Below, piece after piece: positions 2,165-18,393 of a stretch of 21,200 nt of DNA. The notes below the pieces were generated by a model. That model worked only from the letters and a program-made list of their open reading frames with translations. It made no database searches and had not been told where the DNA came from. Origin of the DNA: a virus. The position numbers were made by a program, and so were the translations under genes. Each line of letters begins with the position of its first letter. Positions within the stretch are counted from its first letter, which is position 1. Location: positions 1 through 21,200 of the IMG/VR virus record IMGVR_UViG_3300045988_174903; one strand, given 5' to 3'.

Positions 2165-2193
2165 TTGACATGGGTTACTATAACCCGTATATT
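2165..2193 (+). promoter_or_regulatory. Near-consensus sigma70-type promoter for the RHH gene pair
   Basis: TTGACA (2165-2170), exactly 17 nt, TATATT (2188-2193). The ATG at 2201 lies 7 nt after the -10 element. Confidence 0.5.
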
Positions 2194-2653: not shown

Positions 2654-3139
2654 CTATCTCAGCAAGTCGGGATTCTTTTTGAGATACTCCCAGGCAACAT
2701 CTGTGATGTTGACGTCAAACCCGGACACAATGCTTCCGTACAAGGAATGTCGAATAAGAACGCCGGCTTCTATCAGACCATTTACGACGCCGTCCCTATC
2801 ATCAAATCTCTGTGTTCGAGTATCGAAGAAGATATATCCAAGCAGAATGTCTTTCTCTTTTTGAGTGAGAGCATGGAGACGCTTGATCACCTTTTTACGG
2901 GATTTTGCCTTGGAGCGAGAGGTTTTGATAGTGTTCCAAACCTTTTCCAGCAGGGCGCAGCCGGAAATAAGGAACACGAACCCCGCAATATCGCGGTAAT
3001 CATGGGTCGAATAGCTGATATGCAGGGCCTCAAGGAGGCTTTGAGGAGCGAAAAGATAAACTCCTGCTGCGGAAAAGATTATGCCTGCATAATTGCAAGC
3101 GAATTTAAGCAATTCTGCCAAGTATTGGGGAAAAATCAT
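2654..3139 (-). CDS. sieB: SieB-family superinfection exclusion protein
   Basis: 161 aa. Two N-terminal hydrophobic helices, a basic linker, then LTQKEKDILLGYIF...DGVVNGLIEAGVLIRHS...VAWEYLKKNPDLL. This matches my recollection of the SieB (PF14163) signature. Confidence 0.7.
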   Translation of the reverse strand: MIFPQYLAELLKFACNYAGIIFSAAGVYLFAPQSLLEALHISYSTHDYRDIAGFVFLISGCALLEKVWNTIKTSRSKAKSRKKVIKRLHALTQKEKDILLGYIFFDTRTQRFDDRDGVVNGLIEAGVLIRHSLYGSIVSGFDVNITDVAWEYLKKNPDLLR

Positions 3140-5038: not shown

Positions 5039-5971
5039 ATGAGTAACGCACCTACACATAAACTAGATTTGCCCCAGGCGCCAGTCCCGAAAAAGACACT
5101 CCATGAAATTGTGATGTCGGAGGACATGAAGAGACACATTGCCCAGCTTGTAGAGGGCATGATGACGCCGGAACGCTGTATCAGTATCTTCTGGCACTGC
5201 TGCCAGAAAACCCCACTCCTTCAGCAATGCGCCCCTGTAACGCTGATTGCATCCCTGAAAAACCTGCTGATGATGCGTTGTGAGCCTGACGGCATCCACG
5301 GCTATCTTGTTCCTTTTTGGAGCAATGATAAGGCAAGCGGCCGGTCTGTATTGACCTGCGTTGCTGTCCCCTCCGCCCGCGGCCTGATGCGTATGGCCCG
5401 CTCCAATGGCGTCACCAACCTCAATATTGGAATTGTGAGAGAGGGGGAGCCATTTTCCTGGGGCCTGGAAGAAGGAAAATTCGCAATGGGCCACATCCCG
5501 GAATGGGATGACAGCACGGCGCCCATCAGGGGTTTTTATTGCACCTGGACAGACAAGGACCTCTACCTACACGGGGAACGCATGAGCCTGCGCGCCGTGG
5601 AGGAAATCAAGGCCCGCACCAAGTCCCGGAACAAGGAAGGGGAAGTAGTAGGTCCGTGGGTGACTGACTTCGGGCAAATGGGGCTCAAAACGGTCATCAA
5701 GCGTGCCTCCAAGCAATGGGATTTGCCCCTCTACATCCAAGAAGCCATGAGCAGCGCCGACGATCAGGAATTTGGAAGCGAAATGCGGAATGTAACCCCG
5801 TCCAAGGATGAAAACGAGGAAATAGACCCCTTTAACCCGCCCAAACCGGAGGAAAAACGGCCTACGGCATCGGAGGCATTACCGCCTCCAAATGATGATA
5901 CCGATGATTTTTTTGGAAGTCTGAAGGAGCAGGAGCGTGAGTATGTGCCAGCCAATAGAGAGGACTACTAA
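5039..5971 (+). CDS. recT: RecT-family single-strand annealing recombinase
   Basis: GYLVPF...ARGLMRMARSNG...IVREGEPF...GFYCTW...MSLRAVEEIKARTKS...GPW...MGLKTVIKRASKQWDLP matches the RecT (PF03837) pattern. The track ORF opens at TTG 4994; ATG 5039 is preferred. Confidence 0.8.
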   Translation: MSNAPTHKLDLPQAPVPKKTLHEIVMSEDMKRHIAQLVEGMMTPERCISIFWHCCQKTPLLQQCAPVTLIASLKNLLMMRCEPDGIHGYLVPFWSNDKASGRSVLTCVAVPSARGLMRMARSNGVTNLNIGIVREGEPFSWGLEEGKFAMGHIPEWDDSTAPIRGFYCTWTDKDLYLHGERMSLRAVEEIKARTKSRNKEGEVVGPWVTDFGQMGLKTVIKRASKQWDLPLYIQEAMSSADDQEFGSEMRNVTPSKDENEEIDPFNPPKPEEKRPTASEALPPPNDDTDDFFGSLKEQEREYVPANREDY

Positions 5972-8420: not shown

Positions 8421-9229
8421 ACACTAGAGCACCACGGAAAAGGGCTCTGGCCCGGTATATCGGAGGGAAAAACAGAATTGCCCCCTGGATTATCAGCTTT
8501 TTCCCTCCCCATAAAATCTACGTTGAACCGTTCGGAGGTTCCGGGGCTGTGTTGCTTAATAAACAGCCCGCCTGGATGGAGATCTACAACGACCTTTATG
8601 ACCGAGTGGTTAATTTCTTTGAGGTCTTGCGGGACCCGGAAAAATCCGCCCGGCTGGCCAGTCTGCTGGAATTGACACCCTACGCTCAAACGGCCTATGC
8701 CCGGTCTTTTGAAATCGCGGAAGATCAAGTCGAAGATGCTCTCCGTTTTGCCATCAACTCCATGATGTCCTACGGCGGAGGTATTCACAAGCCGGGGTTC
8801 AAGCGCAACGGCTTACTTCGCACAACCCCTTATCCTCAAACGTGGCGGGAATATCCGGCCGTAGTGCGAGAATGCGCGGCCGAACTCCGGAACCGAAATA
8901 TCGAAATCAACAAAATGGACGCCCTGCAGGTCATGGCCCGGTACGATACGCCGGACACGCTGCATTACGTGGATCCTCCCTATGTGCAATCTACCCGAGG
9001 CAACCGTGTGAGGTACGCGCATGAGTACGACCAAGAGGACCATGAGCGGCTTCTTGTCTTTTTGAAGACGCTGAAAGGCAAGGTTGTCCTGTCCGGCTAC
9101 GATTCCGAGCTTTATGCCCGGCATCTGGCCGGGTGGCGGAAGGAATGCAAGGTCTCCCACGACACGCAAGGCGGGGAGAAAATCGAATGCCTGTGGCTTA
9201 ACTACAACCCCCAACTGACGCTTTTTTGA
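8417..9229 (+). CDS. dam: Dam-type (D12 class) N6-adenine DNA methyltransferase
   Basis: YIGGKNRIAPWI...EPFGGSGAV (SAM-binding motif) and YVDPPY (catalytic DPPY). ATGA overlap at 8417. Target specificity cannot be read from the sequence. Confidence 0.85.
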   Translation: MNTRAPRKRALARYIGGKNRIAPWIISFFPPHKIYVEPFGGSGAVLLNKQPAWMEIYNDLYDRVVNFFEVLRDPEKSARLASLLELTPYAQTAYARSFEIAEDQVEDALRFAINSMMSYGGGIHKPGFKRNGLLRTTPYPQTWREYPAVVRECAAELRNRNIEINKMDALQVMARYDTPDTLHYVDPPYVQSTRGNRVRYAHEYDQEDHERLLVFLKTLKGKVVLSGYDSELYARHLAGWRKECKVSHDTQGGEKIECLWLNYNPQLTLF

Positions 9230-9231
9230 TT

Positions 9232-9756
9232 ATGGCGCGTAAACCAACATCTTTAATCCCGCGGACGCACCGGGAATTATGCGAAATTGCTGAACGCTGG
9301 CTCATGGGCTCTGCCCGTTGCCGGGTGGCGATCGCGGAACCGAACTGCATCGTTACGGACGAGCAGCCCGACGCTATAGGTTTCAAGGGATCGTATAGCA
9401 TCCTCGTTGAGGCTAAAACCAGCCGGGCGGATTTTTTGGCAGACCTCAAAAAGCCGTTCCGCCTCCGTCCTCAAAAGGGTATGGGGTATTGCCGATACTA
9501 CATCTGTGAGCCGGGGATCATCACAGAAGATGACCTGCCGGAACGGTGGGGATTACTGTATGTCCTCCCTGGCGGACGGGTTCGGATAGTTCGGTACAGC
9601 AGACATTTCCGTGAGGCAAACTACGCCGCTGAAAGGAGCCTTTTGACCGCATGCCTGTACATCCAGAAGCCGCTAAAAATCAATACTGTTCAAGGCAGGA
9701 AAATACAGCTCTCACCTGCATTTGGCGCAGAAGCAAAAGAGAAGGAGGGGATATAG
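9232..9756 (+). CDS. MmcB-like PD-(D/E)xK nuclease family protein
   Basis: PDAIGF...ILVEAKTSRADFLADLKK...YYICEPGIITEDDLPERWGLLYV: a PD...ExK motif plus an MmcB/DUF1052-like tail. Confidence 0.5.
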   Translation: MARKPTSLIPRTHRELCEIAERWLMGSARCRVAIAEPNCIVTDEQPDAIGFKGSYSILVEAKTSRADFLADLKKPFRLRPQKGMGYCRYYICEPGIITEDDLPERWGLLYVLPGGRVRIVRYSRHFREANYAAERSLLTACLYIQKPLKINTVQGRKIQLSPAFGAEAKEKEGI

Positions 9757-9761
9757 TATAT

Positions 9762-10517
9762 ATGGCCGGAGACTGGATAAAGGTTGAACACACAACACCC
9801 GACAAGCCGGAAGTGGTGAAGTTGGCCGACATGCTCGGCATTGATCAGGATGCCGTGGTTGGAAAGCTGCTGCGCCTTTGGATTTGGGCTGATCAACAAT
9901 CCGTCTCTGGTAACGCTATCACCGTTACAAATTCGTTTCTCGACCGTCTCGTATTCTGCCCCGGTTTCGCCGCTGGGCTTGTCAAAGTCGGCTGGTTGAA
10001 TGGACGCAATGGACTCCTTTCAATCCCCAATTTTGACCGCCATAATGGCCAAACCGCTAAGAATAGGGCCAATACGAACCGCCGAGTTGCGAATCACCGA
10101 AAAGGACGTAACGATGAAACCGTTACAGATGTAACGCCCGAACCGTTACAAAAACCGTTACCAGAGAAGAGAAGAGAAGATAATACTACTACACCAACTA
10201 CAACCGGGCGCGAAGTCTGCCAATTTCCGCAGGACGTGTCCGAAATTGACCGCTTCATGGCCGCTCAAGTGCTGCACCCGCTCGGAGACGAGCTTACCCG
10301 GTGCGCCGAACGGTTTTTTAACGAGCAAGCCGCCGTTGGCTGGAAAAACAAGCACGGCATCCCCCTGGCGGACTGGCGGCCCCTGGCCCGCCAATACCCC
10401 GCCACCTGGGCCCGCAACAACGCGGCCGAAGCTGGCTTAAAGCCCGCCAATGCCGCGGGAACCGCATCAAAATCAACACCTAAACCATCACGAAGAGATG
10501 AACTCTGGACAGACTGA
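9762..10517 (+). CDS. Phage replisome organizer / replication initiator (lambda O-like role)
   Basis: ATG 9762 follows a GGAGGGG SD sequence. N-terminus DWIKVEHTTPDKPEVVKLADMLGIDQDAVVGKLLRLWIWADQ is typical of phage replication-organizer N domains. There is a low-complexity linker containing iterons, and the gene sits upstream of the DnaC-like loader. Confidence 0.6.
   Translation: MAGDWIKVEHTTPDKPEVVKLADMLGIDQDAVVGKLLRLWIWADQQSVSGNAITVTNSFLDRLVFCPGFAAGLVKVGWLNGRNGLLSIPNFDRHNGQTAKNRANTNRRVANHRKGRNDETVTDVTPEPLQKPLPEKRREDNTTTPTTTGREVCQFPQDVSEIDRFMAAQVLHPLGDELTRCAERFFNEQAAVGWKNKHGIPLADWRPLARQYPATWARNNAAEAGLKPANAAGTASKSTPKPSRRDELWTD
10104..10210. other. Candidate phage origin of replication (iterons plus AT-rich/short-repeat segment) inside the organizer gene
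   Basis: CGTTAC/GTAACG hexamers at 10108, 10121, 10131, 10144 and 10156. AACCGTTAC occurs three times. Then (AGAAG)x3 and ATAATACTACTAC. One further GTAACG-N8-CGTTAC pair lies at 9910-9929. Confidence 0.45.
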
Positions 10518-11300: not shown

Positions 11301-12605
11301 TCAAGATTGTTTCTTTGTAGACCGCCCCCTTGTATCAAACGCCGGGATATTTAATTTTCTCCTTGCTTTTCCGATAACTTGTATTGATTTGCCTGTTTTA
11401 TTAGCGACTTCTTTATCAGTCATTGTGCCCAGCAGGGATTTAATGTATTCGTCCCCTTCTATTGTTTCTTGCAAGCTTTTTTCCTCACGTAATGCCGGAA
11501 CATTCAATTTCTGTCTAATTCTTCTTACTGCCTCGTCATCAATATTAAATTTTTCGGCTATTACTCTATCATAAACTTTCCCAAGCATAGATAAGAGTTT
11601 TTTACGTTGGTCCGGTGAAAATCTTTCTAAAATGCTTTTACTGAAAGGCTTAATTTTGTTCTGTTCTCTAAATTTTTTAATTACATATACGCTGTACCCT
11701 GTTTTTTTTGCAATTTTTAAATCTGATACTCTTCCCAATAAATTAAGAATTATATCCTTGTCCGCATCCTTAATGGGAGAGTATGGAGCTGGAGCAATTT
11801 TTAATTTTCTACGGTTCCGCGCTACAACATTAAGCGATATTCCAAGCCTTTCAGCAATTTCGCTATCAGGAACTTTCCCAAGCATGGATAGCATTTCTTC
11901 GCGTTTCTCTTCGGGGAATTTAGTATCAGATAATGATGGAATGCCCATCTTTTTTCTAATAAGCGCAATTCCTGCCTTGGAATAACCGAATTTTTTAGCA
12001 ATTTCATCATCCGGGGTCTTTCCAAGCATGTTAATTAACTCTTCGGGATACTCTTTTTTCTTGTGTGGTTTATTTGGGTCTCGTGGCTGACGGGGTTTAC
12101 GCGGCCCCCTATATGACTTAATCCCTAATTTCTTTCTAAGGTAGGCTACTCTGGAATTTGAGTATCCAAACTTCTTGGCACACTCCGAGTCAGGAATTTT
12201 TCCGAGCACTGCAATAAGCTCTTCATCGTGTTGGATGCGGATTGCTTCAGGGCTGCAATACTTTTTGATACCTAATTTATAGCGTTCAGTCTGGACCGTG
12301 ACGCGCGCTATTCCGAGTAGCTCGGCGATTTCCAGATCAGGTTTTTTGCCCAACATGGACCGCATTTCTTCACGCTGTTCGTGAGAAAGAATGCGGTGAA
12401 ACCTCTTTTCTCGGTATTTTTCATGCAATAACTCCATGAGCAATTGCATGTATTCAGGCGTGGGATGTGGTTTTTTAGTATTTAGCCACTTCCAAACAGC
12501 ATCTTCCGTCACCCGCATCATCTGCGCGGCCCTTTTTACAGCTTGGGTAGGATTTGGAAGATTGTTGGCAGTTTGAAGCCAGTCGATAAATTCTTGTGCG
12601 GTCAT
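11301..12605 (-). CDS. Multi-HTH repeat protein: N-terminal Cro/YdaS-like HTH plus seven tandem sigma-r4/Mor/GcrA-like HTH modules
   Basis: 434 aa. The consensus (E)E(L/M)xxMLGKxPDxEIAKKFGYSxxxVxxxRKKLGI recurs with the LG(K/R/T) dipeptide at residues 85, 134, 194, 242, 290, 341 and 392. The repeats are also visible in the DNA (e.g. TTTCCCAAGCAT variants). Confidence 0.8.
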   Translation of the reverse strand: MTAQEFIDWLQTANNLPNPTQAVKRAAQMMRVTEDAVWKWLNTKKPHPTPEYMQLLMELLHEKYREKRFHRILSHEQREEMRSMLGKKPDLEIAELLGIARVTVQTERYKLGIKKYCSPEAIRIQHDEELIAVLGKIPDSECAKKFGYSNSRVAYLRKKLGIKSYRGPRKPRQPRDPNKPHKKKEYPEELINMLGKTPDDEIAKKFGYSKAGIALIRKKMGIPSLSDTKFPEEKREEMLSMLGKVPDSEIAERLGISLNVVARNRRKLKIAPAPYSPIKDADKDIILNLLGRVSDLKIAKKTGYSVYVIKKFREQNKIKPFSKSILERFSPDQRKKLLSMLGKVYDRVIAEKFNIDDEAVRRIRQKLNVPALREEKSLQETIEGDEYIKSLLGTMTDKEVANKTGKSIQVIGKARRKLNIPAFDTRGRSTKKQS

Positions 12606-12616
12606 AGTGAGAAAGG

Positions 12617-12637
12617 AGGGGCGGCTTTGCCGCCCCT
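12617..12637 (-). other. Intercistronic GC hairpin between the acidic-protein gene and the multi-HTH gene
   Basis: GGGGCGGC (12618-12625), TTT, GCCGCCCC (12629-12636), plus the flanking A:T pair 12617/12637. On the minus-strand RNA it is followed by UCCUUUCUC, so it could be a partial attenuator. Confidence 0.35.
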
Positions 12638-12646
12638 GGGGGTTAT

Positions 12647-12970
12647 TTAGTGAGCTTCAACGCGGGAAGCGTCCTGCGTCCAGTTGAGGTTTTCTCCTTC
12701 AATTTCTTCGCCCGTCATTTGTTCAAAGACCATGAAGATTTCAACCTTGTTCCCTTCTGCATCATAGCCGGGAGCAGACCATTCTTCCATATAGCTGCCG
12801 TCTTCGTATTTGTCCGCATAGGAGCCAGGGAAAACCCTGTTGGTGTATTCCATCTGGCGCGCTGCATAGTAGGTCTTGCCTTCAAACTTGTAGCTGCCAA
12901 ATTCACGTTCAAGAGCGGTCAGGTTGATTTCTTCTCCGTCTTCCGTGGTGATGATTTTGTTATCGTTCAT
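12647..12970 (-). CDS. Highly acidic 107-aa protein (function unknown)
   Basis: By my count, 24 D/E against 9 K/R. It is the first gene of the minus-strand operon. No recognised motif. Confidence 0.6.
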   Translation of the reverse strand: MNDNKIITTEDGEEINLTALEREFGSYKFEGKTYYAARQMEYTNRVFPGSYADKYEDGSYMEEWSAPGYDAEGNKVEIFMVFEQMTGEEIEGENLNWTQDASRVEAH

Positions 12971-13042
12971 TGTCTTGTTCTTTCTAGTTTTGTTATTTGG
13001 ATTATGTCTTCGTTCGGTCCCTTACCTCCCGTCAACAAAATT

Positions 13043-13071
13043 AAGTTACTATAAAATTTATAGTAACGCAA
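13043..13071 (-). promoter_or_regulatory. Candidate promoter with embedded perfect palindrome (operator) for the minus-strand operon
   Basis: On the minus strand: TTGCGT (13071-13066), 17 nt, TAACTT (13048-13043). The spacer and flanks form GTTACTATAAA-A-TTTATAGTAAC (13045-13067), with 11-bp perfect arms. Confidence 0.4.
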
Positions 13072-13147
13072 GAGAAAAAATGAAAAAAGGTGAAAAAAGT
13101 TGTCATTCCGTTTTTGCTTGCGGCCTGGCGCAGAATATGAGAGAAGT

Positions 13148-13271
13148 AATTTGTTCTTTCTAGGAACACGTCAGCCCTCCGGGGCTGTGGATTAAAACGA
13201 TCACAAGATCAGCACGAGCGGAAACGCTCATTCCCTTAAAAAGGGCGGTTCTTCGGGGCTGCCCTTTTTTA
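13148..13271 (+). ncRNA. Candidate plus-strand structured small RNA ending in an intrinsic terminator
   Basis: Three hairpins have canonical stable tetraloops only when read on the plus strand. First: CAGCCC-UCCG-GGGCUG (13172-13187). Second: GAGCG-GAAA-CGCUC (13216-13229). Third: a 10-bp stem with a UUCG loop (13242-13265) plus U6. The 5' end is a guess, based on a weak TTGCTT-16-TATGAG at 13114-13141. Confidence 0.35.
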
Positions 13272-13787
13272 TTCCTTCGGGACGGCAGGGGCGGCAAGTA
13301 CCCGCCATCCGGCGCCGCTGCCATGTCCGCATTTGCGGAAGCGTTGTGCAGCACAAACCAGGAGCTTATAGACCTTTTTCCCCTTTTCTTCGCCGTACCG
13401 GTCTATCATGTAGAGTTTGAGATTCCGAGCCGTGACTTTCTCTCCATCCGGGGATTCCAGCAGCCATATCTTTGCATGGCAATTTGTCTCAAATTTCCCT
13501 GTTCTGGGGTGCTTCCTGGGGCCGGGAACTCCCCGATGCTTGCAAGCCTCCTGAAAGGCTTCTGACGTGATTTTCCGCCCCTTCTGGGCTGCATTCGCGC
13601 AAGGATAAGAGCAATGTTTCCGCCGAAAGAGTTTTTTAGCGCGGAATTCCTTTCCGCACACGGGGCAGGTGATAGTTTCCCAGGCGGCGTCATAGTGTGC
13701 CTTGAGGCAAGCGCGGGAGCAGTATACGCTTTCCCGCGCTCCGTAGCGCGGCGGAACATCCTTGCCGCATATAGGACACTTTTTCAC
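13269..13787 (-). CDS. Double zinc-ribbon protein with homing-endonuclease-like C-terminal DNA-binding segment
   Basis: Two CPxCGK...(Y/H)CSxxC units: CPICGKDV...YCSRAC and CPVCGKEF...HCSYPC. The C-terminal WLLESPDGEKVTARNLKLYMIDRYGEE...GAGWRV resembles the tail of phage GIY-YIG/HNH-associated proteins. No catalytic motif is seen. Confidence 0.6.
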   Translation of the reverse strand: MKKCPICGKDVPPRYGARESVYCSRACLKAHYDAAWETITCPVCGKEFRAKKLFRRKHCSYPCANAAQKGRKITSEAFQEACKHRGVPGPRKHPRTGKFETNCHAKIWLLESPDGEKVTARNLKLYMIDRYGEEKGKKVYKLLVCAAQRFRKCGHGSGAGWRVLAAPAVPKE

Positions 13788-13892
13788 AAAATCTGTATAT
13801 GTGAGAGGGTCAGATTTGTCAATGGGCCCAGAAAGGAATGAACAAACAGAGTGCTTGATTTGCTAGCTACTTGTCCTCTAGAGTAGACCTGC

Positions 13893-14408
13893 AGGAAAAA
13901 GAAGCAATCACCTACCGCCAACAAGAAAATAGGACGGCCCAGCCTCTATACGGAGGCATTAGCCGACGAGATAGCCTCCCGTTTAGCCAACGGGGAAACG
14001 ATGAAGTCCATTTGCTCGGACGATCACATGCCGGAGGTTTTAACTGTCTGGAGATGGAGGCACGAACGGGAAGAGTTTTGTAAACTCATTCAACGCGCGC
14101 GGGAAGCGCAGTCAGAAGCCATGCTCGACGAGTGTCAGTCTTTGTCAGATGCCGCTGCCCAGGTTGCCCTCGACCCCGAATGCGGATCCGCCTCCGTCGC
14201 TGCCAAGAAGCTCGCCATTGAAACGCGGCTGAAAGTTGCCGCCCGTTTTGCCCCCGAGAAATTCGGCGACCGAGTCCGGCAGGATGTAGCGGGCGTTCCC
14301 GGCGCTCCATTGGAACGCAAAATCACCCTGGACCCCGAGCAGCTTGCCCAGCTCCGGGAAGACGAGAAAACCGCGCTGGAAACCATTGCCGGCAAACTCC
14401 ACCCTTAA
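13893..14408 (+). CDS. terS: Terminase small subunit (start codon unresolved; first ATG is 14001)
   Basis: The in-frame translation from 13893 reads (AGG)KKKQSPTANKKIGRPSLYTEALADEIASRLANGETMKSICSDDHMPEVLTVWRWRHEREEFCKLIQRAREAQSEAMLDE. This is a typical TerS HTH N-terminus, and ATG 14001 would cut it in half. Confidence 0.75.
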   Translation, partial: RKKKQSPTANKKIGRPSLYTEALADEIASRLANGETMKSICSDDHMPEVLTVWRWRHEREEFCKLIQRAREAQSEAMLDECQSLSDAAAQVALDPECGSASVAAKKLAIETRLKVAARFAPEKFGDRVRQDVAGVPGAPLERKITLDPEQLAQLREDEKTALETIAGKLHP

Positions 14409-14414
14409 TCGAGC

Positions 14415-15788
14415 AGGAACCATCTCCCCGTCAGCTTCTTCCTCCGTCACATTCTCGGACTCGATCCTTATCCCTGGCAAATCGAGGCCATCAAGGCATT
14501 GCTTCTTGGAAAGGTGAGGCTGGGAGGTCGAAGCGTGGCCATGGTTGCTCCGAACGGATCGGGAAAGACGAGCCTATCCATTGCGCCCGCAATCCTGTGT
14601 TTCCTTACCTATTTTCCTCGGGGTCAGGTGCCAGTCACGTCATCATCATGGATGCAGGTAGAAAAACAGCTCTTTCCCGCGCTTCGCCGCTATATGGATA
14701 ACCCTTTCTTTGACGGCTGGACATTCAACAAAACCGAAATCCGCACGCCGGAAGGAGGATTTGCCGTGGGATTCTCAACCGACAACGCGGGACGCGCAGA
14801 AGGGTGGCATCCGAAAATCTCGCCCGACGTGGATCCCGTCTTTTACGTCCTGGACGAAGCCAAGACCATTCCCGACTCCATCTTCACCGCTGTTTCCCGC
14901 TGCACGCTCTTCAACGCGTTCATCACCTCGTCGCCGGGTGCCGATTCCGGAACCTTTTACGACTGCTTCCACAAAAATTCATCCCTCTACTACAAAATCC
15001 GCGTTAAATACGAGGATTGCCCGCACATCGAAATCAACGATCCAGGCAAGGCCGAACGCCTGAAAAAAGAATACGGCGAACAGTCCTCCTTCTACCGCTC
15101 GGCCATCCTCGGCGAATTCACGGACCTTGACGGGCAATCCGTCATTTCCCGCCGCGCCATCATGGAGCTGCTCAACAACCCGCCTCCCTTTTTGGACACC
15201 GGGGAGACCTGCGGCGGCTTTGACTTCGCCGCCGGGGGTGATGAGAATGTCTTCGCGGCCGGACAGGGCAACCGTTTTTTCATCGCCGACCACTGGGCCG
15301 ACCCAGACACTGTAGGAGCGCGCGGACGTTTCCGCCGAAAGGCCGCCGAACTCGGCATCTCTGCCGACCGCATCTTTGCCGACGGCGACGGACTGGGGCT
15401 TCCCATCATTGACGACTTCCGGGCTGAGGGTTTCCCCGTGCACTCCTACCGGGGAGGCTTCCCGGCAGATGACACACAAGCCTTTGTCAACCTCCGCGCC
15501 CAAGCATGGAGGGCACTAGCCCGAGCCATCGAAGAAAAAGAGCTCATTCTCGACATCGACGAGGATACCGTTGAGCAACTGGTCGCCCCCCGCCTCCAGA
15601 CGGACGCGATTGGGCGCGTCAAAATCGAGAGCAAGGAGGACATGGCAAAGCGGGGCGTCCGCTCTCCAGACCGTGCTGACGCGCTCGTCATGGCCTGGCA
15701 CGCGCGCCGGCACAGCGGACTTGTCCGGGAGCTTGGGACTTGGTATGCCAGACATCCGGCACAAAAACGCGCCATTGGCAGATATTAG
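14415..15788 (+). CDS. terL: Terminase large subunit (start codon unresolved; first canonical start is TTG 14499)
   Basis: Walker A: VAPNGSGKTS. Walker B: FYVLDEAK. C-terminal nuclease end: SPDRADALVMAW. The conserved-looking LGLDPYPWQIEAIKAL lies upstream of TTG 14499, in the same open frame. Confidence 0.85.
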   Translation, partial: RNHLPVSFFLRHILGLDPYPWQIEAIKALLLGKVRLGGRSVAMVAPNGSGKTSLSIAPAILCFLTYFPRGQVPVTSSSWMQVEKQLFPALRRYMDNPFFDGWTFNKTEIRTPEGGFAVGFSTDNAGRAEGWHPKISPDVDPVFYVLDEAKTIPDSIFTAVSRCTLFNAFITSSPGADSGTFYDCFHKNSSLYYKIRVKYEDCPHIEINDPGKAERLKKEYGEQSSFYRSAILGEFTDLDGQSVISRRAIMELLNNPPPFLDTGETCGGFDFAAGGDENVFAAGQGNRFFIADHWADPDTVGARGRFRRKAAELGISADRIFADGDGLGLPIIDDFRAEGFPVHSYRGGFPADDTQAFVNLRAQAWRALARAIEEKELILDIDEDTVEQLVAPRLQTDAIGRVKIESKEDMAKRGVRSPDRADALVMAWHARRHSGLVRELGTWYARHPAQKRAIGRY

Positions 15789-17297: not shown

Positions 17298-18393
17298 CCT
17301 GTCCAATCCCGCCAACGGCTGGTTCCACGTCGAGAAAAGCGGAGATCATGAGGTCGACTACGGCGAGGGGCCTGCGGTGCTCCGCATAGACGAGCAGGCG
17401 ATCAAGTCCATGGTGGATGAATTCAACTCCCGCACCTTTGACGGGCCCGGCATGCTCATTGACGGCGACCACTTGAGCCATGACCTTTCACGCGACACTC
17501 GCGCTCTCGGATGGCTCAAGCGGCTGGACACCTACCGCGATCCTTCCGGCGCGTTGGAGTTGTACGGCTTCATCGAATGGACGCCACGCGGGCAGCAAAT
17601 GCTGGCCGACAAAGAATATACGCAATCCTCCACTGAATACGGAGAGGGCATGACGTTCGAGGGCGGCATTTACCGTCCCGCCAAGCTGACAGGCTTCGCC
17701 CTGACCAACCGTCCCCGAATTAAGGGGAAGCGCCCTCTGGTCAACCGACAGACTTCCCCCGCCTCCACGGAGACCGGGGGCGAACAACAAAGCCCCGAAC
17801 AGGGGGAAAACAACCCAGAAACCAATATGGAAAACGACGATAGAGAATATCCGTCCAAGGAAATGGACAAGGCCCAGCGGGCCCTGTTTGATTCCCTGCT
17901 TGACAAGCTGGATGTCGAATTTGACGGCACCGACGACATGAGCAGGGACATCCTCGGACGCCTCGATGAACTGCTCTCGCTGGAAAAGCGGGAGAAAGAC
18001 CACGTGAACGCCGAAGTGGACGACGCCGTCAGCACGTATGAAAACGAGCTGGACGAGGAAGAGCGCAAGGAATTCACGGAAGAACGCCGGGAAGAGCTGA
18101 AAAACTCTCTCCGGGAAAGTCCGGCCGCACTGGGCGCCTTTGTCAAGGCTCTCAATCGGTCCGCGAAGTCAAAGCCGCCGCATGACGTTGTTGACGAAAG
18201 CCGCCGAAATCCAGCTGGAAGAACGTCCTTGAACCGCCGCGCTACCCAGGCGCCGCCCAATCCGTTCCGCAAGAAGGAATCCATCGACGGATTCCAGAAC
18301 CGCGTCGACGAATTAATGAAGGGCGGCATGAAGCGGTACGACGCCTTCCAGAAAGCCACCGAAGAAGGCTACATTGTAACCTCCGAACGATAA
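17272..18393 (+). CDS. Mu gpI-like head maturation protease fused to a scaffold-like charged C-terminal half
   Basis: GWFHV...GDH...IDGDHLSH...ALGWLKRL...LYGFIEWTPRGQQMLADKEY...LTNRPRI resembles Mu-like prophage protein I (PF10123). The C-terminal half is E/K/D-rich and looks coiled-coil. Confidence 0.7.
   Translation: MISTKQINDLSNPANGWFHVEKSGDHEVDYGEGPAVLRIDEQAIKSMVDEFNSRTFDGPGMLIDGDHLSHDLSRDTRALGWLKRLDTYRDPSGALELYGFIEWTPRGQQMLADKEYTQSSTEYGEGMTFEGGIYRPAKLTGFALTNRPRIKGKRPLVNRQTSPASTETGGEQQSPEQGENNPETNMENDDREYPSKEMDKAQRALFDSLLDKLDVEFDGTDDMSRDILGRLDELLSLEKREKDHVNAEVDDAVSTYENELDEEERKEFTEERREELKNSLRESPAALGAFVKALNRSAKSKPPHDVVDESRRNPAGRTSLNRRATQAPPNPFRKKESIDGFQNRVDELMKGGMKRYDAFQKATEEGYIVTSER

Follow-up and report, generated by a model that had tools for sequence, protein, structure and literature searches.

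The DNA analysed here is a stretch of 21,200 nucleotides (nt) from a temperate phage, positions 1 to 21,200 of IMG/VR virus record IMGVR_UViG_3300045988_174903 (hereafter the window). A minus-strand gene at 11301-12605 encodes a protein of 434 amino acids (aa), the array protein, in which an N-terminal helix-turn-helix (HTH) domain (the N-domain) is followed by seven homologous HTH units (A to G). With a probability of roughly 0.5, we read this protein as an Aca/Cro-like HTH autoregulator of a self-contained accessory operon of Akkermansia prophages, fused to a multivalent DNA-reading array.

Domain architecture of the array protein

The open reading frame (ORF), singled out in an initial annotation made from the sequence alone, starts with ATG. 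The four repeat peptides quoted in that annotation were all present in the 434-aa protein, and the eight HTH modules that it had likened to beads on a string were recovered by a Pfam scan and in AlphaFold2 models. The AlphaFold modelling that it had proposed as a check gave each unit as a three-helix HTH. The protein is identical to WP_435351128.1 from Akkermansia massiliensis, which bears the annotation 'hypothetical protein' and is present on 426 contigs, a 3.1-Mb chromosome among them. It is basic (isoelectric point (pI) 9.9; 92 K + R vs 57 D + E residues). The gene is as AT-rich as had been stated (40.5% GC vs 55-58% in the flanks) and, as far as the array gene is concerned, it does lie on the strand opposite to both flanking operons.

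The seven unit cores are 42 aa each and start at aa 75, 124, 184, 232, 280/281, 331 and 382, with anchor spacings of 49, 60, 48, 48, 51 and 51 aa. Their mean pairwise identity is 37% for the protein and 48% for the DNA. No DNA-level tandem repeat was detected in the gene by Tandem Repeats Finder; this result and the 48% nucleotide identity mean that the repeats are old at the DNA level. Homology of the units was tested in a non-circular way, by scoring each unit against a hidden Markov model (HMM) of the other six. Scores ranged from 23.7 to 57.0 bits, and the best of 500 shuffles per unit reached at most 10.2 bits. In the AlphaFold2 model of the whole protein, each unit was formed of three helices with a predicted local distance difference test (pLDDT) score of ~80-89. 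Linkers scored <50 and the predicted template modelling (pTM) score was 0.27, so no fixed packing between domains is predicted. Unit D alone, modelled from 63 aligned units, reached a pLDDT of 92.7.

Residues 1-74 were modelled by AlphaFold2 as a separate, four-helix HTH domain. It had been described as a Cro/YdaS-like HTH: the HTH part of this description holds, and the Cro/YdaS family signal is consistent but stays below threshold. The N-domain scored 17.4-17.5 bits against Pfam YdaS_toxin (PF15943; cut-off 30) and 13.9 bits against P22_Cro (PF14549; cut-off 30.2). Both versions of the N-domain that occur as stand-alone proteins (see below) scored 14.6 bits against YdaS_toxin.

Variation of the units and of their number

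Relatives of the array protein are designated by P-numbers and the loci compared by L-numbers. Scaffold positions L11, G12, D16, A20, V/I30, R34 and I39 are fixed in the units. Entropy between units is highest in helix 3, at positions 27-29, 31-33 and 35; positions 31, 33 and 35 differ from unit to unit, yet are conserved among orthologues. As the units share a scaffold but each has its own helix 3, the protein would present up to seven different recognition helices. Unit G is the most conserved unit among orthologues, and the long linker RGPRKPRQPRDPNKPHKK differs in length between them.

The number of units ranges from 4 to 9 among relatives. The units at the two ends of the array hold their position (A on the N-terminal side, E-F-G on the C-terminal side), and the part between them grows and shrinks. 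P0016, P0020 and P0023 carry 9, 7 and 6 units, respectively, in proteins that are near-identical apart from that. In P0011, units A-C are gone from a protein that shows 98% identity. An exact in-register recombination between D and F distinguishes P0231, which is shorter than the allele of the window by 99 aa. In-register recombination in the central part of the array changes the unit number, and the whole pattern fits seven differentiated recognition helices carried on a recombination-prone scaffold. Nonsynonymous changes relative to near-identical alleles were too few for a comparison by region (7-21), and helix 3 was not enriched in them. Cluster members of 405, 406 and 351 aa were considered as further variants and rejected, being alternative start-codon calls. 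The N-domain type can itself be arrayed, since P0004 (728 aa; L012, 7001-9187) consists of four tandem Cro-like N-domains followed by eight units.

Operon and control signals

On the minus strand, the operon comprises a palindrome lying over a promoter-like frame, an ORF for an acidic protein, a hairpin and, as the last gene, the array ORF. The palindrome, GTTACTATAAA-T-TTTATAGTAAC (11+1+11; 13045-13067), is perfect and overlaps the putative promoter frame. The frame itself, TTGCnn-17-TAnnTT, is retained in loci with a different palindrome. If sigma-70-like signals are assumed in Akkermansia, the segment 13043-13071 would be the promoter of the operon.

The acidic protein has 42 homologues, and the two with a named organism are from Akkermansia. 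It falls into no recognisable family, with no match in Pfam, PHROGs, PADLOC, NCBIfam or PDB. The hairpin between the acidic and array ORFs, predicted to be an intrinsic terminator or attenuator, is kept in L001, L010, L012, L021 and L022, where the loops differ and the stems are compensated. Compared with L010, the upstream non-coding region is 88% identical, a value similar to that of the dnaC-like gene (87%). About 65 nt within 12971-13042, between the -10 element and the start of the acidic ORF, are almost invariant across the aligned loci, even where the palindrome or the downstream genes differ. A search of 12500-14100 against Rfam for an RNA in the conserved non-coding stretch gave no match.

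Upstream of the operon lies the gene of a 172-aa zinc-ribbon protein, which has its own terminator: the strong stem-loop at 13238-13269 looks like a bidirectional terminator-like site. A YacG/FCS-like pattern in the 172-aa protein was not significant, and a partial match to an HNH-endonuclease PHROG was obtained (1.2e-8). PADLOC recognised no defence system in the three cassette proteins (zinc-ribbon, acidic and array). The acidic and zinc-ribbon proteins were without matches, and the array protein gave weak matches at the HTH level only (mad1, 1e-4; HEase, 2.5e-4).

Loci with and without the array

The zinc-ribbon, acidic and array genes occur together in the window and in L001-4, L010-12 and L021-23. 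In L001-L004 the zinc-ribbon gene is present though uncalled, with 94.6% nucleotide identity. L010 is the most diverged locus with the set in the same slot. Nucleotide identity to it is 73% for the array gene (over ~750 of 1,305 nt), 73.6% for the zinc-ribbon gene, 82% for terS and 87% for the dnaC-like gene. L012 carries the gene set in another slot, after a Peptidase_S24 CI-like repressor gene, co-oriented with it and facing the endolysin gene.

Sister phages share the terminase, portal, protease and loader genes of the window, with terS 82% identical. No unit was found in any frame in those with the same backbone (L015-17, L026-28), nor in L014. The array is dispensable in the sister phages. 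The gene set is accessory, as its other slot in L012, the AT-richness of the array gene and the lower identity of that gene to L010 also indicate. In L015-17 and L014, the N-domain stands alone as a protein of 69-79 aa, directly after the acidic ORF and the hairpin. A 69-aa N-domain homologue is encoded at L015 5322-5531 (+), and likewise in L016, L017 and L026-28; the public gene call at this place in L015 (70 aa, minus strand, 5330-5542) is probably an error. In L015-17, a different perfect palindrome, TATACTAAACA-T-TGTTTAGTATA, occupies the same place at the promoter. In L014, the scan found no palindrome with arms of at least 8 bp, and a short imperfect one was seen by eye. The -35/17/-10 frame is kept in the window, L015-17 and L014 types. 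Helix 3 of the N-domain varies in step with the operator (D..VWKWL, M..VWQWL, I..VWEWM), and no DNA-binding element other than the N-domain is shared by every version of the operon. For these two reasons, the N-domain is taken as the probable operator-binding autoregulator.

A relative, P0021, has an unrelated acidic ORF of 111 aa upstream, and L014 has two acidic ORFs upstream of the HTH ORF. Distant array proteins lack the N-domain and are found in unrelated contexts.

Families related to the unit

The initial annotation had likened the units to sigma region 4, Mor/C or GcrA-type HTHs. A specific assignment of this kind was not supported by the searches, in which only generic HTH families matched. 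In Pfam, these included HTH_23 (2.6e-10). Sigma70_r4_2 summed to 26.4 bits with no single stretch passing. Sigma region 2, sigma region 3 and the sigma-54 core-binding domain are absent from the array protein. Among solved sequences, the best match to the unit profile was the sigma-54 RpoN box (E 1.3e-3, ~30 residues). The N-domain matched phrog_836 'late transcriptional activator' over 35 residues (E 0.0025) and the whole model matched Mor (1rr7; Foldseek E 1.8), neither significantly. PDB sequence searches gave no meaningful match for the array protein as a whole, for its N-domain or for the acidic protein. Foldseek against PDB with the whole chain or with a single unit gave none at E<=1e-3, and generic HTH or winged-helix folds only.

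The suggestion that no characterised phage protein has this architecture was not supported either. The best PHROG was phrog_323 'transcriptional regulator, D5-like' (3e-26, 93.7 bits, three stretches), with the best stretch aligning residues 175-306 to profile positions 86-234 of 319. T5 D5 belongs to this family over its full length (1.2e-71, profile positions 3-270 in one stretch). A viral structure library returned 29 multi-HTH matches at E<=1e-3, including a T5-like D5 protein (2.4e-5). Homing-endonuclease and HNH PHROGs 7168, 59 and 1891 matched through the HTH units. The GIY-YIG endonuclease NVP1170O_214 of Vibrio phage 1.170.O, in which the nuclease domain is followed by at least three copies of the unit, was the closest by unit-model score among the annotated proteins examined (independent E 1.2e-18, 6.1e-9 and 6.8e-18; tblastn 3e-9). 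The array unit is the module that a phage GIY-YIG endonuclease uses as its DNA-binding tail. No GIY-YIG, HNH or LAGLIDADG domain was detected in the array protein itself (Pfam scan, E<=1).

A profile search of 1.84 billion cluster representatives recovered 5,142 relatives, with arrays of up to 934 aa and occasional fusions. One fusion partner reads as a helicase-like domain. Annotated phages and E. coli genomes gave no match at the nucleotide level, a scan of a genome collection with the full alignment yielded no confirmed relative, and a literature search on tandem or multiple-HTH phage proteins returned nothing relevant. The architecture is accordingly widespread and in part catalogued, yet essentially uncharacterised.

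Proposed function

In its minimal form, the operon ends with a gene for the Cro/Aca-like domain only (69-79 aa). In the favoured model, a dimer of the N-domain would bind the palindrome and repress its own operon. The protein of the window combines this domain with seven HTH units of the GIY-YIG-tail type, joined by flexible and partly very basic linkers. Anchored by the N-domain at or near the operator, the array could place up to seven different recognition helices into successive major grooves and cover ~70-90 bp, a length estimated from the unit number and the helical repeat. The analysis shows the domain architecture, the homology of the units, the structure of the operon, its accessory status and the variation in copy number. 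We infer DNA binding, autoregulation through the palindrome, the promoter assignment and what the array binds.

Several observations weigh against this model. DNA binding is a prediction, and no target of the array was found; no periodic array of sites appeared among the window-wide repeats. The promoter falls below the scan threshold (8/12 matches) and was not listed by the scan. Matches of the N-domain in PHROG, Pfam and NCBIfam are limited to sub-threshold ones of the Cro/YdaS type. Loci with the type-I palindrome have in common the zinc-ribbon protein, the array and also one N-domain variant, so the identity of its binder is confounded there, and the operator types seen are three only. No similarity to an anti-defence protein was detected for the acidic protein. 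To our knowledge, an intrinsic terminator directly upstream of the array ORF is undescribed as a feature of acr-aca operons. Lastly, the distant arrays that lack the N-domain and lie in unrelated contexts suggest that an array may act apart from operon regulation.

A broader proposal, which we hold to be rather unlikely, is that the units form a natural scaffold for reading DNA in a modular way. A few bp would be read by each 42-aa unit through helix-3 positions 27-35, and arrays of 4 to ~20 units, reshuffled through in-register recombination, would spell long addresses. If so, a TALE- or zinc-finger-like recognition code, open to deciphering and reprogramming, would reside in a family of >5,000 clusters, and homing endonucleases and nuclease-free proteins would share one module.

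Alternative explanations

Late regulation was a function suggested by the position of the gene, which had been said to sit exactly where Mu-like and lambdoid phages place late-gene regulators. This placement argument fails because the array is dispensable in the sister phages and because the gene set changes slot. A multivalent activator that switches on the terminase/head operon immediately downstream is accordingly very improbable, even if ~1.4 kb separate the array gene from terS, a late promoter could be present in the divergent region 13788-14000, and weak similarities link the N-domain to phrog_836 and the whole model to Mor. These similarities are insignificant, and every unit is missing from the sister phages, in which terS is 82% identical and the loader, portal and protease genes are the same. 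In L012, the set adjoins the repressor and endolysin genes. The gene runs antisense to the lytic operons; it is preceded by an operator of its own and by a terminator, and its AT-richness resembles that of an acquired accessory (moron-type) gene. The array protein is probably not the late-gene activator of the phage. Titration of a host factor that recognises such HTH domains (a sigma-factor partner or a defence sensor) is scarcely credible. Multivalency would suit such a decoy, and the units show a weak similarity to sigma-70 region 4 and to the sigma-54 RpoN box, but the sigma similarities are all marginal, the gene context suggests no partner, and nucleic acid is indicated as the ligand by the basic linkers and by the conserved basic residues at the surface (R34, K36).

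It is possible, though doubtful, that the protein is a global DNA-coating protein or silencer like T5 D5, which would bind double-stranded DNA with low specificity and high avidity, the N-domain only setting the dose. Acting for instance as an exclusion factor encoded by the prophage, it would shut off or redirect replication and transcription on DNA of the phage, of a competitor or of the host. The top PHROG is indeed the D5-like family, and T5 D5 is a tandem-HTH protein that is described, in the T5 record and in a later paper, as DNA-binding and as affecting replication, late expression and early shutoff. The array protein is very basic, as are its linkers. Its gene lies on the strand of the SieB gene, opposite to the lytic operons, and in L012 it is co-oriented with the CI-like repressor gene. 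However, the seven helices 3 are individually conserved among orthologues, and differentiated rather than generic contacts are therefore favoured. D5 itself gives a weak match (hhalign probability 17%, unit-model E 1.8e-4), and the terminator upstream of the ORF suggests low expression, a poor fit to a stoichiometric coat. That same hairpin would yield an excess of the upstream protein, as expected if the two genes formed a toxin-antitoxin-like pair autoregulated like a type II module, in which the basic array inhibits growth via the nucleoid and the acidic 107-aa protein neutralises it by DNA mimicry. The succession of an acidic (pI 4.2) and a basic (pI 9.9) protein in one operon with a palindromic operator also suits such a pair. 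It is nevertheless improbable: in L014-17 the acidic ORF is paired with a 69-79-aa HTH protein only, the acidic ORF upstream of P0021 is unrelated, and no toxin-antitoxin or defence model was matched. About as improbable is a homing-endonuclease derivative devoid of its nuclease, either a decayed gene or a protector that occupies the target sites of an endonuclease. Such an origin would account for units of the same module as the tails of GIY-YIG/HNH endonucleases, and the neighbouring 172-aa protein partly matches the HNH-endonuclease PHROG. Against it, the array gene has no nuclease domain, its ORF is intact and found on 426 contigs, its order of units is conserved, which is unlike a decaying gene, and its N-terminus is a conserved regulator domain that also occurs alone.

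Comparison with known systems

T5 D5 is a DNA-binding protein according to the T5 record note and to a later paper citing it. Like the array protein, it comes from a phage and is built from small HTH units in tandem, of which about four can be read in its sequence, with W-T-P-E...IA...G...V..K..L patterns. In contrast to the array protein, D5 has 255 aa and four units and lacks a Cro-like N-domain. It is encoded in the replication cluster of a virulent phage, whereas the array gene is an accessory prophage gene. The two proteins are not collinear, the array protein matching the phrog_323 profile in three partial stretches via its repeated units, and direct similarity between them is weak. The tails of GIY-YIG/HNH endonucleases have the same unit (LLGTxxDxxxAxxxGxsxxxVxxxRxxLGIPxf) and use it in tandem. 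The array protein differs from them by the absence of a nuclease domain, by its seven units (vs three or more) and by its regulator-type N-domain. The endonuclease tail targets cleavage; the array protein has nothing to deliver.

In acr-aca operons, as described in PMC6765145, PMC9410906, PMC13551039 and PMC10799925, a small protein gene is followed by that of an HTH autorepressor binding inverted repeats in the promoter. The operon of the window has the same layout on a mobile element, with a small, poorly conserved gene followed by an HTH gene on the same strand. Its inverted repeat overlaps the putative promoter, and the operator changes with the HTH. Unlike in acr-aca operons, a terminator separates the two genes, and no inhibition of a defence system is known for the upstream protein. 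Because of this resemblance, the acidic partner is a candidate for an anti-defence or exclusion function. In a text search, none of the tandem or multi-HTH terms looked for occurred in a 2026 Aca survey. A further parallel is offered by P0033, a multi-HTH array protein encoded directly downstream of an AcrVA2-like gene. In this locus (L008, 6971-9602), the AcrVA2-like gene (PF26125) lies 8 bp upstream of the array gene, and genes for ParB, SSB, VRR-NUC and DNA methyltransferase are found on the element as well. Another distant relative, P0032 (L009, 1-9104), comes from a metagenome-assembled genome of Thermoanaerobaculia (Acidobacteriota) and adjoins a VapBC pair and a DISARM-like set of genes (helicase, MZB, PLD and MmeI-type methyltransferase).

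Eukaryotic Myb/SANT and homeodomain arrays (c-Myb R1R2R3, Reb1, SNAPc, DUX4) also consist of tandem three-helix HTHs with helix 3 in the major groove, and distant units start with W-T-x-E as Myb repeats do. Reb1-Ter, SNAPc and DUX4 are weak structural analogues of the array protein. No match to them was significant (Foldseek E >=0.18), their lineage and context are unrelated, and they have two to five repeats that are packed or short-linkered. In the sigma-54 RpoN box, ARRTVAKYREMLGIPSSRER aligns with the helix 3-LGIP segment, including the invariant Arg. This match is borderline over the residues aligned, and the other regions of sigma-54 are absent from the array protein.

Multi-HTH phage proteins are already catalogued (T5 D5, PHROG 323), and no new mechanism is demanded. 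The combination of a Cro-like regulator domain with seven units of the homing-endonuclease type makes the array protein an unusual variant of known phage DNA binders. Should the favoured model hold, a minimal phage repressor can gain a long, recombination-prone array of homing-endonuclease modules. The 5,142 representatives form a very large, uncurated tandem-HTH family for which no dedicated Pfam family was significant in the scans run, and its units look individually specialised. Akkermansia is a human-gut genus and a medically relevant commensal, a host on which the candidate function of the acidic partner would bear.

Location of the features

Positions and strands of the features are collected in Table 1.

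Table 1. Features of the array protein, of its operon and of neighbouring DNA (positions in the window).
Feature	Position	Strand	Remarks
HTH-array protein, 434 aa, WP_435351128.1	11301..12605	-	exact protein match
N-terminal Cro/YdaS-like HTH domain, aa 1-74	12384..12605	-	model and sub-threshold profile signal
Unit A, aa 75-116	12258..12383	-	helix 3 RVTVQTERYK
Unit B, aa 124-165	12111..12236	-	helix 3 NSRVAYLRKK
Long linker RGPRKPRQPRDPNKPHKK, aa 166-183	12057..12110	-	basic, proline-rich, net charge +7
Unit C, aa 184-225	11931..12056	-	helix 3 KAGIALIRKK
Unit D, aa 232-273	11787..11912	-	helix 3 LNVVARNRRK
Unit E, aa 280-321	11643..11768	-	
Unit F, aa 331-372	11490..11615	-	helix 3 DEAVRRIRQK
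Unit G, aa 382-423	11337..11462	-	helix 3 IQVIGKARRK
GC hairpin GGGGCGGC-AAA-GCCGCCCC with T-rich tail	12609..12636	-	between acidic and array ORFs
Acidic protein, 107 aa, pI 4.2	12647..12970	-	first operon gene; 41 nt upstream of array ORF
Putative operon promoter	13043..13071	-	-35 TTGCGT (13071->13066), 17-nt spacer, -10 TAACTT (13048->13043); read from sequence
Stem-loop, 14 pairs (G-T allowed), A-/T-run flanks	13238..13269	both	ends 172-aa gene
Zinc-ribbon protein, 172 aa, basic, pI 9.8	13269..13787	-	two CPxCGK...(Y/H)CSxxC
Early promoter-like site TTGACA-17 nt-TATATT	2165..2193	+	read from sequence

Phage setting and other sites

The plus strand of the window carries an integrase gene (557-1744) and genes for RecT, YqaJ, a DNA methyltransferase, a replication initiator and a DnaC/IstB-like loader. 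After the three minus-strand genes, it continues with those for the two terminase subunits (the small one of Sf6 type), a Mu-like portal and a protease. Besides those three, a single minus-strand gene was recognised (2654-3139), which encodes a homologue of the superinfection-exclusion protein SieB (6.2e-18). No CI-type repressor gene was recognised between the integrase and the early genes in the window.

The early promoter-like site is of the textbook sigma-70 type. Its spacer holds GTTACTATAAC (2174-2184), which matches the half-site of the cassette operator at 10 of 11 positions; this is a weak lead for cross-regulation. A near-palindrome, GGGTTAC-TATAACCC, was also noted in this spacer (2165-2203). 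Just downstream, a 79-aa ORF (2201-2440) showed a weak ribbon-helix-helix match (RHH_5, E 0.0056).

Within the replication-initiator gene (9910-10152) there are three 22-nt copies of GTAACGCTATCACCGTTACAAA and variants of it, with a GTAAC...GTTAC inverted core. By analogy with lambdoid phages, these elements look like iterons or an origin inside the initiator gene, and they probably belong to the initiator rather than to the array. A perfect 20-nt inverted repeat, TGCGGCGGCTTTGACTTCGC, occurs at 15210-15229 (large terminase) and 18163-18182 (protease), 2.9 kb apart; its length is well beyond chance for 21 kb. A perfect 18-nt inverted repeat, AAAAATCCGCCCGGCTGG, lies at 8640-8657 in the methyltransferase gene and at 9419-9436 in the next gene.

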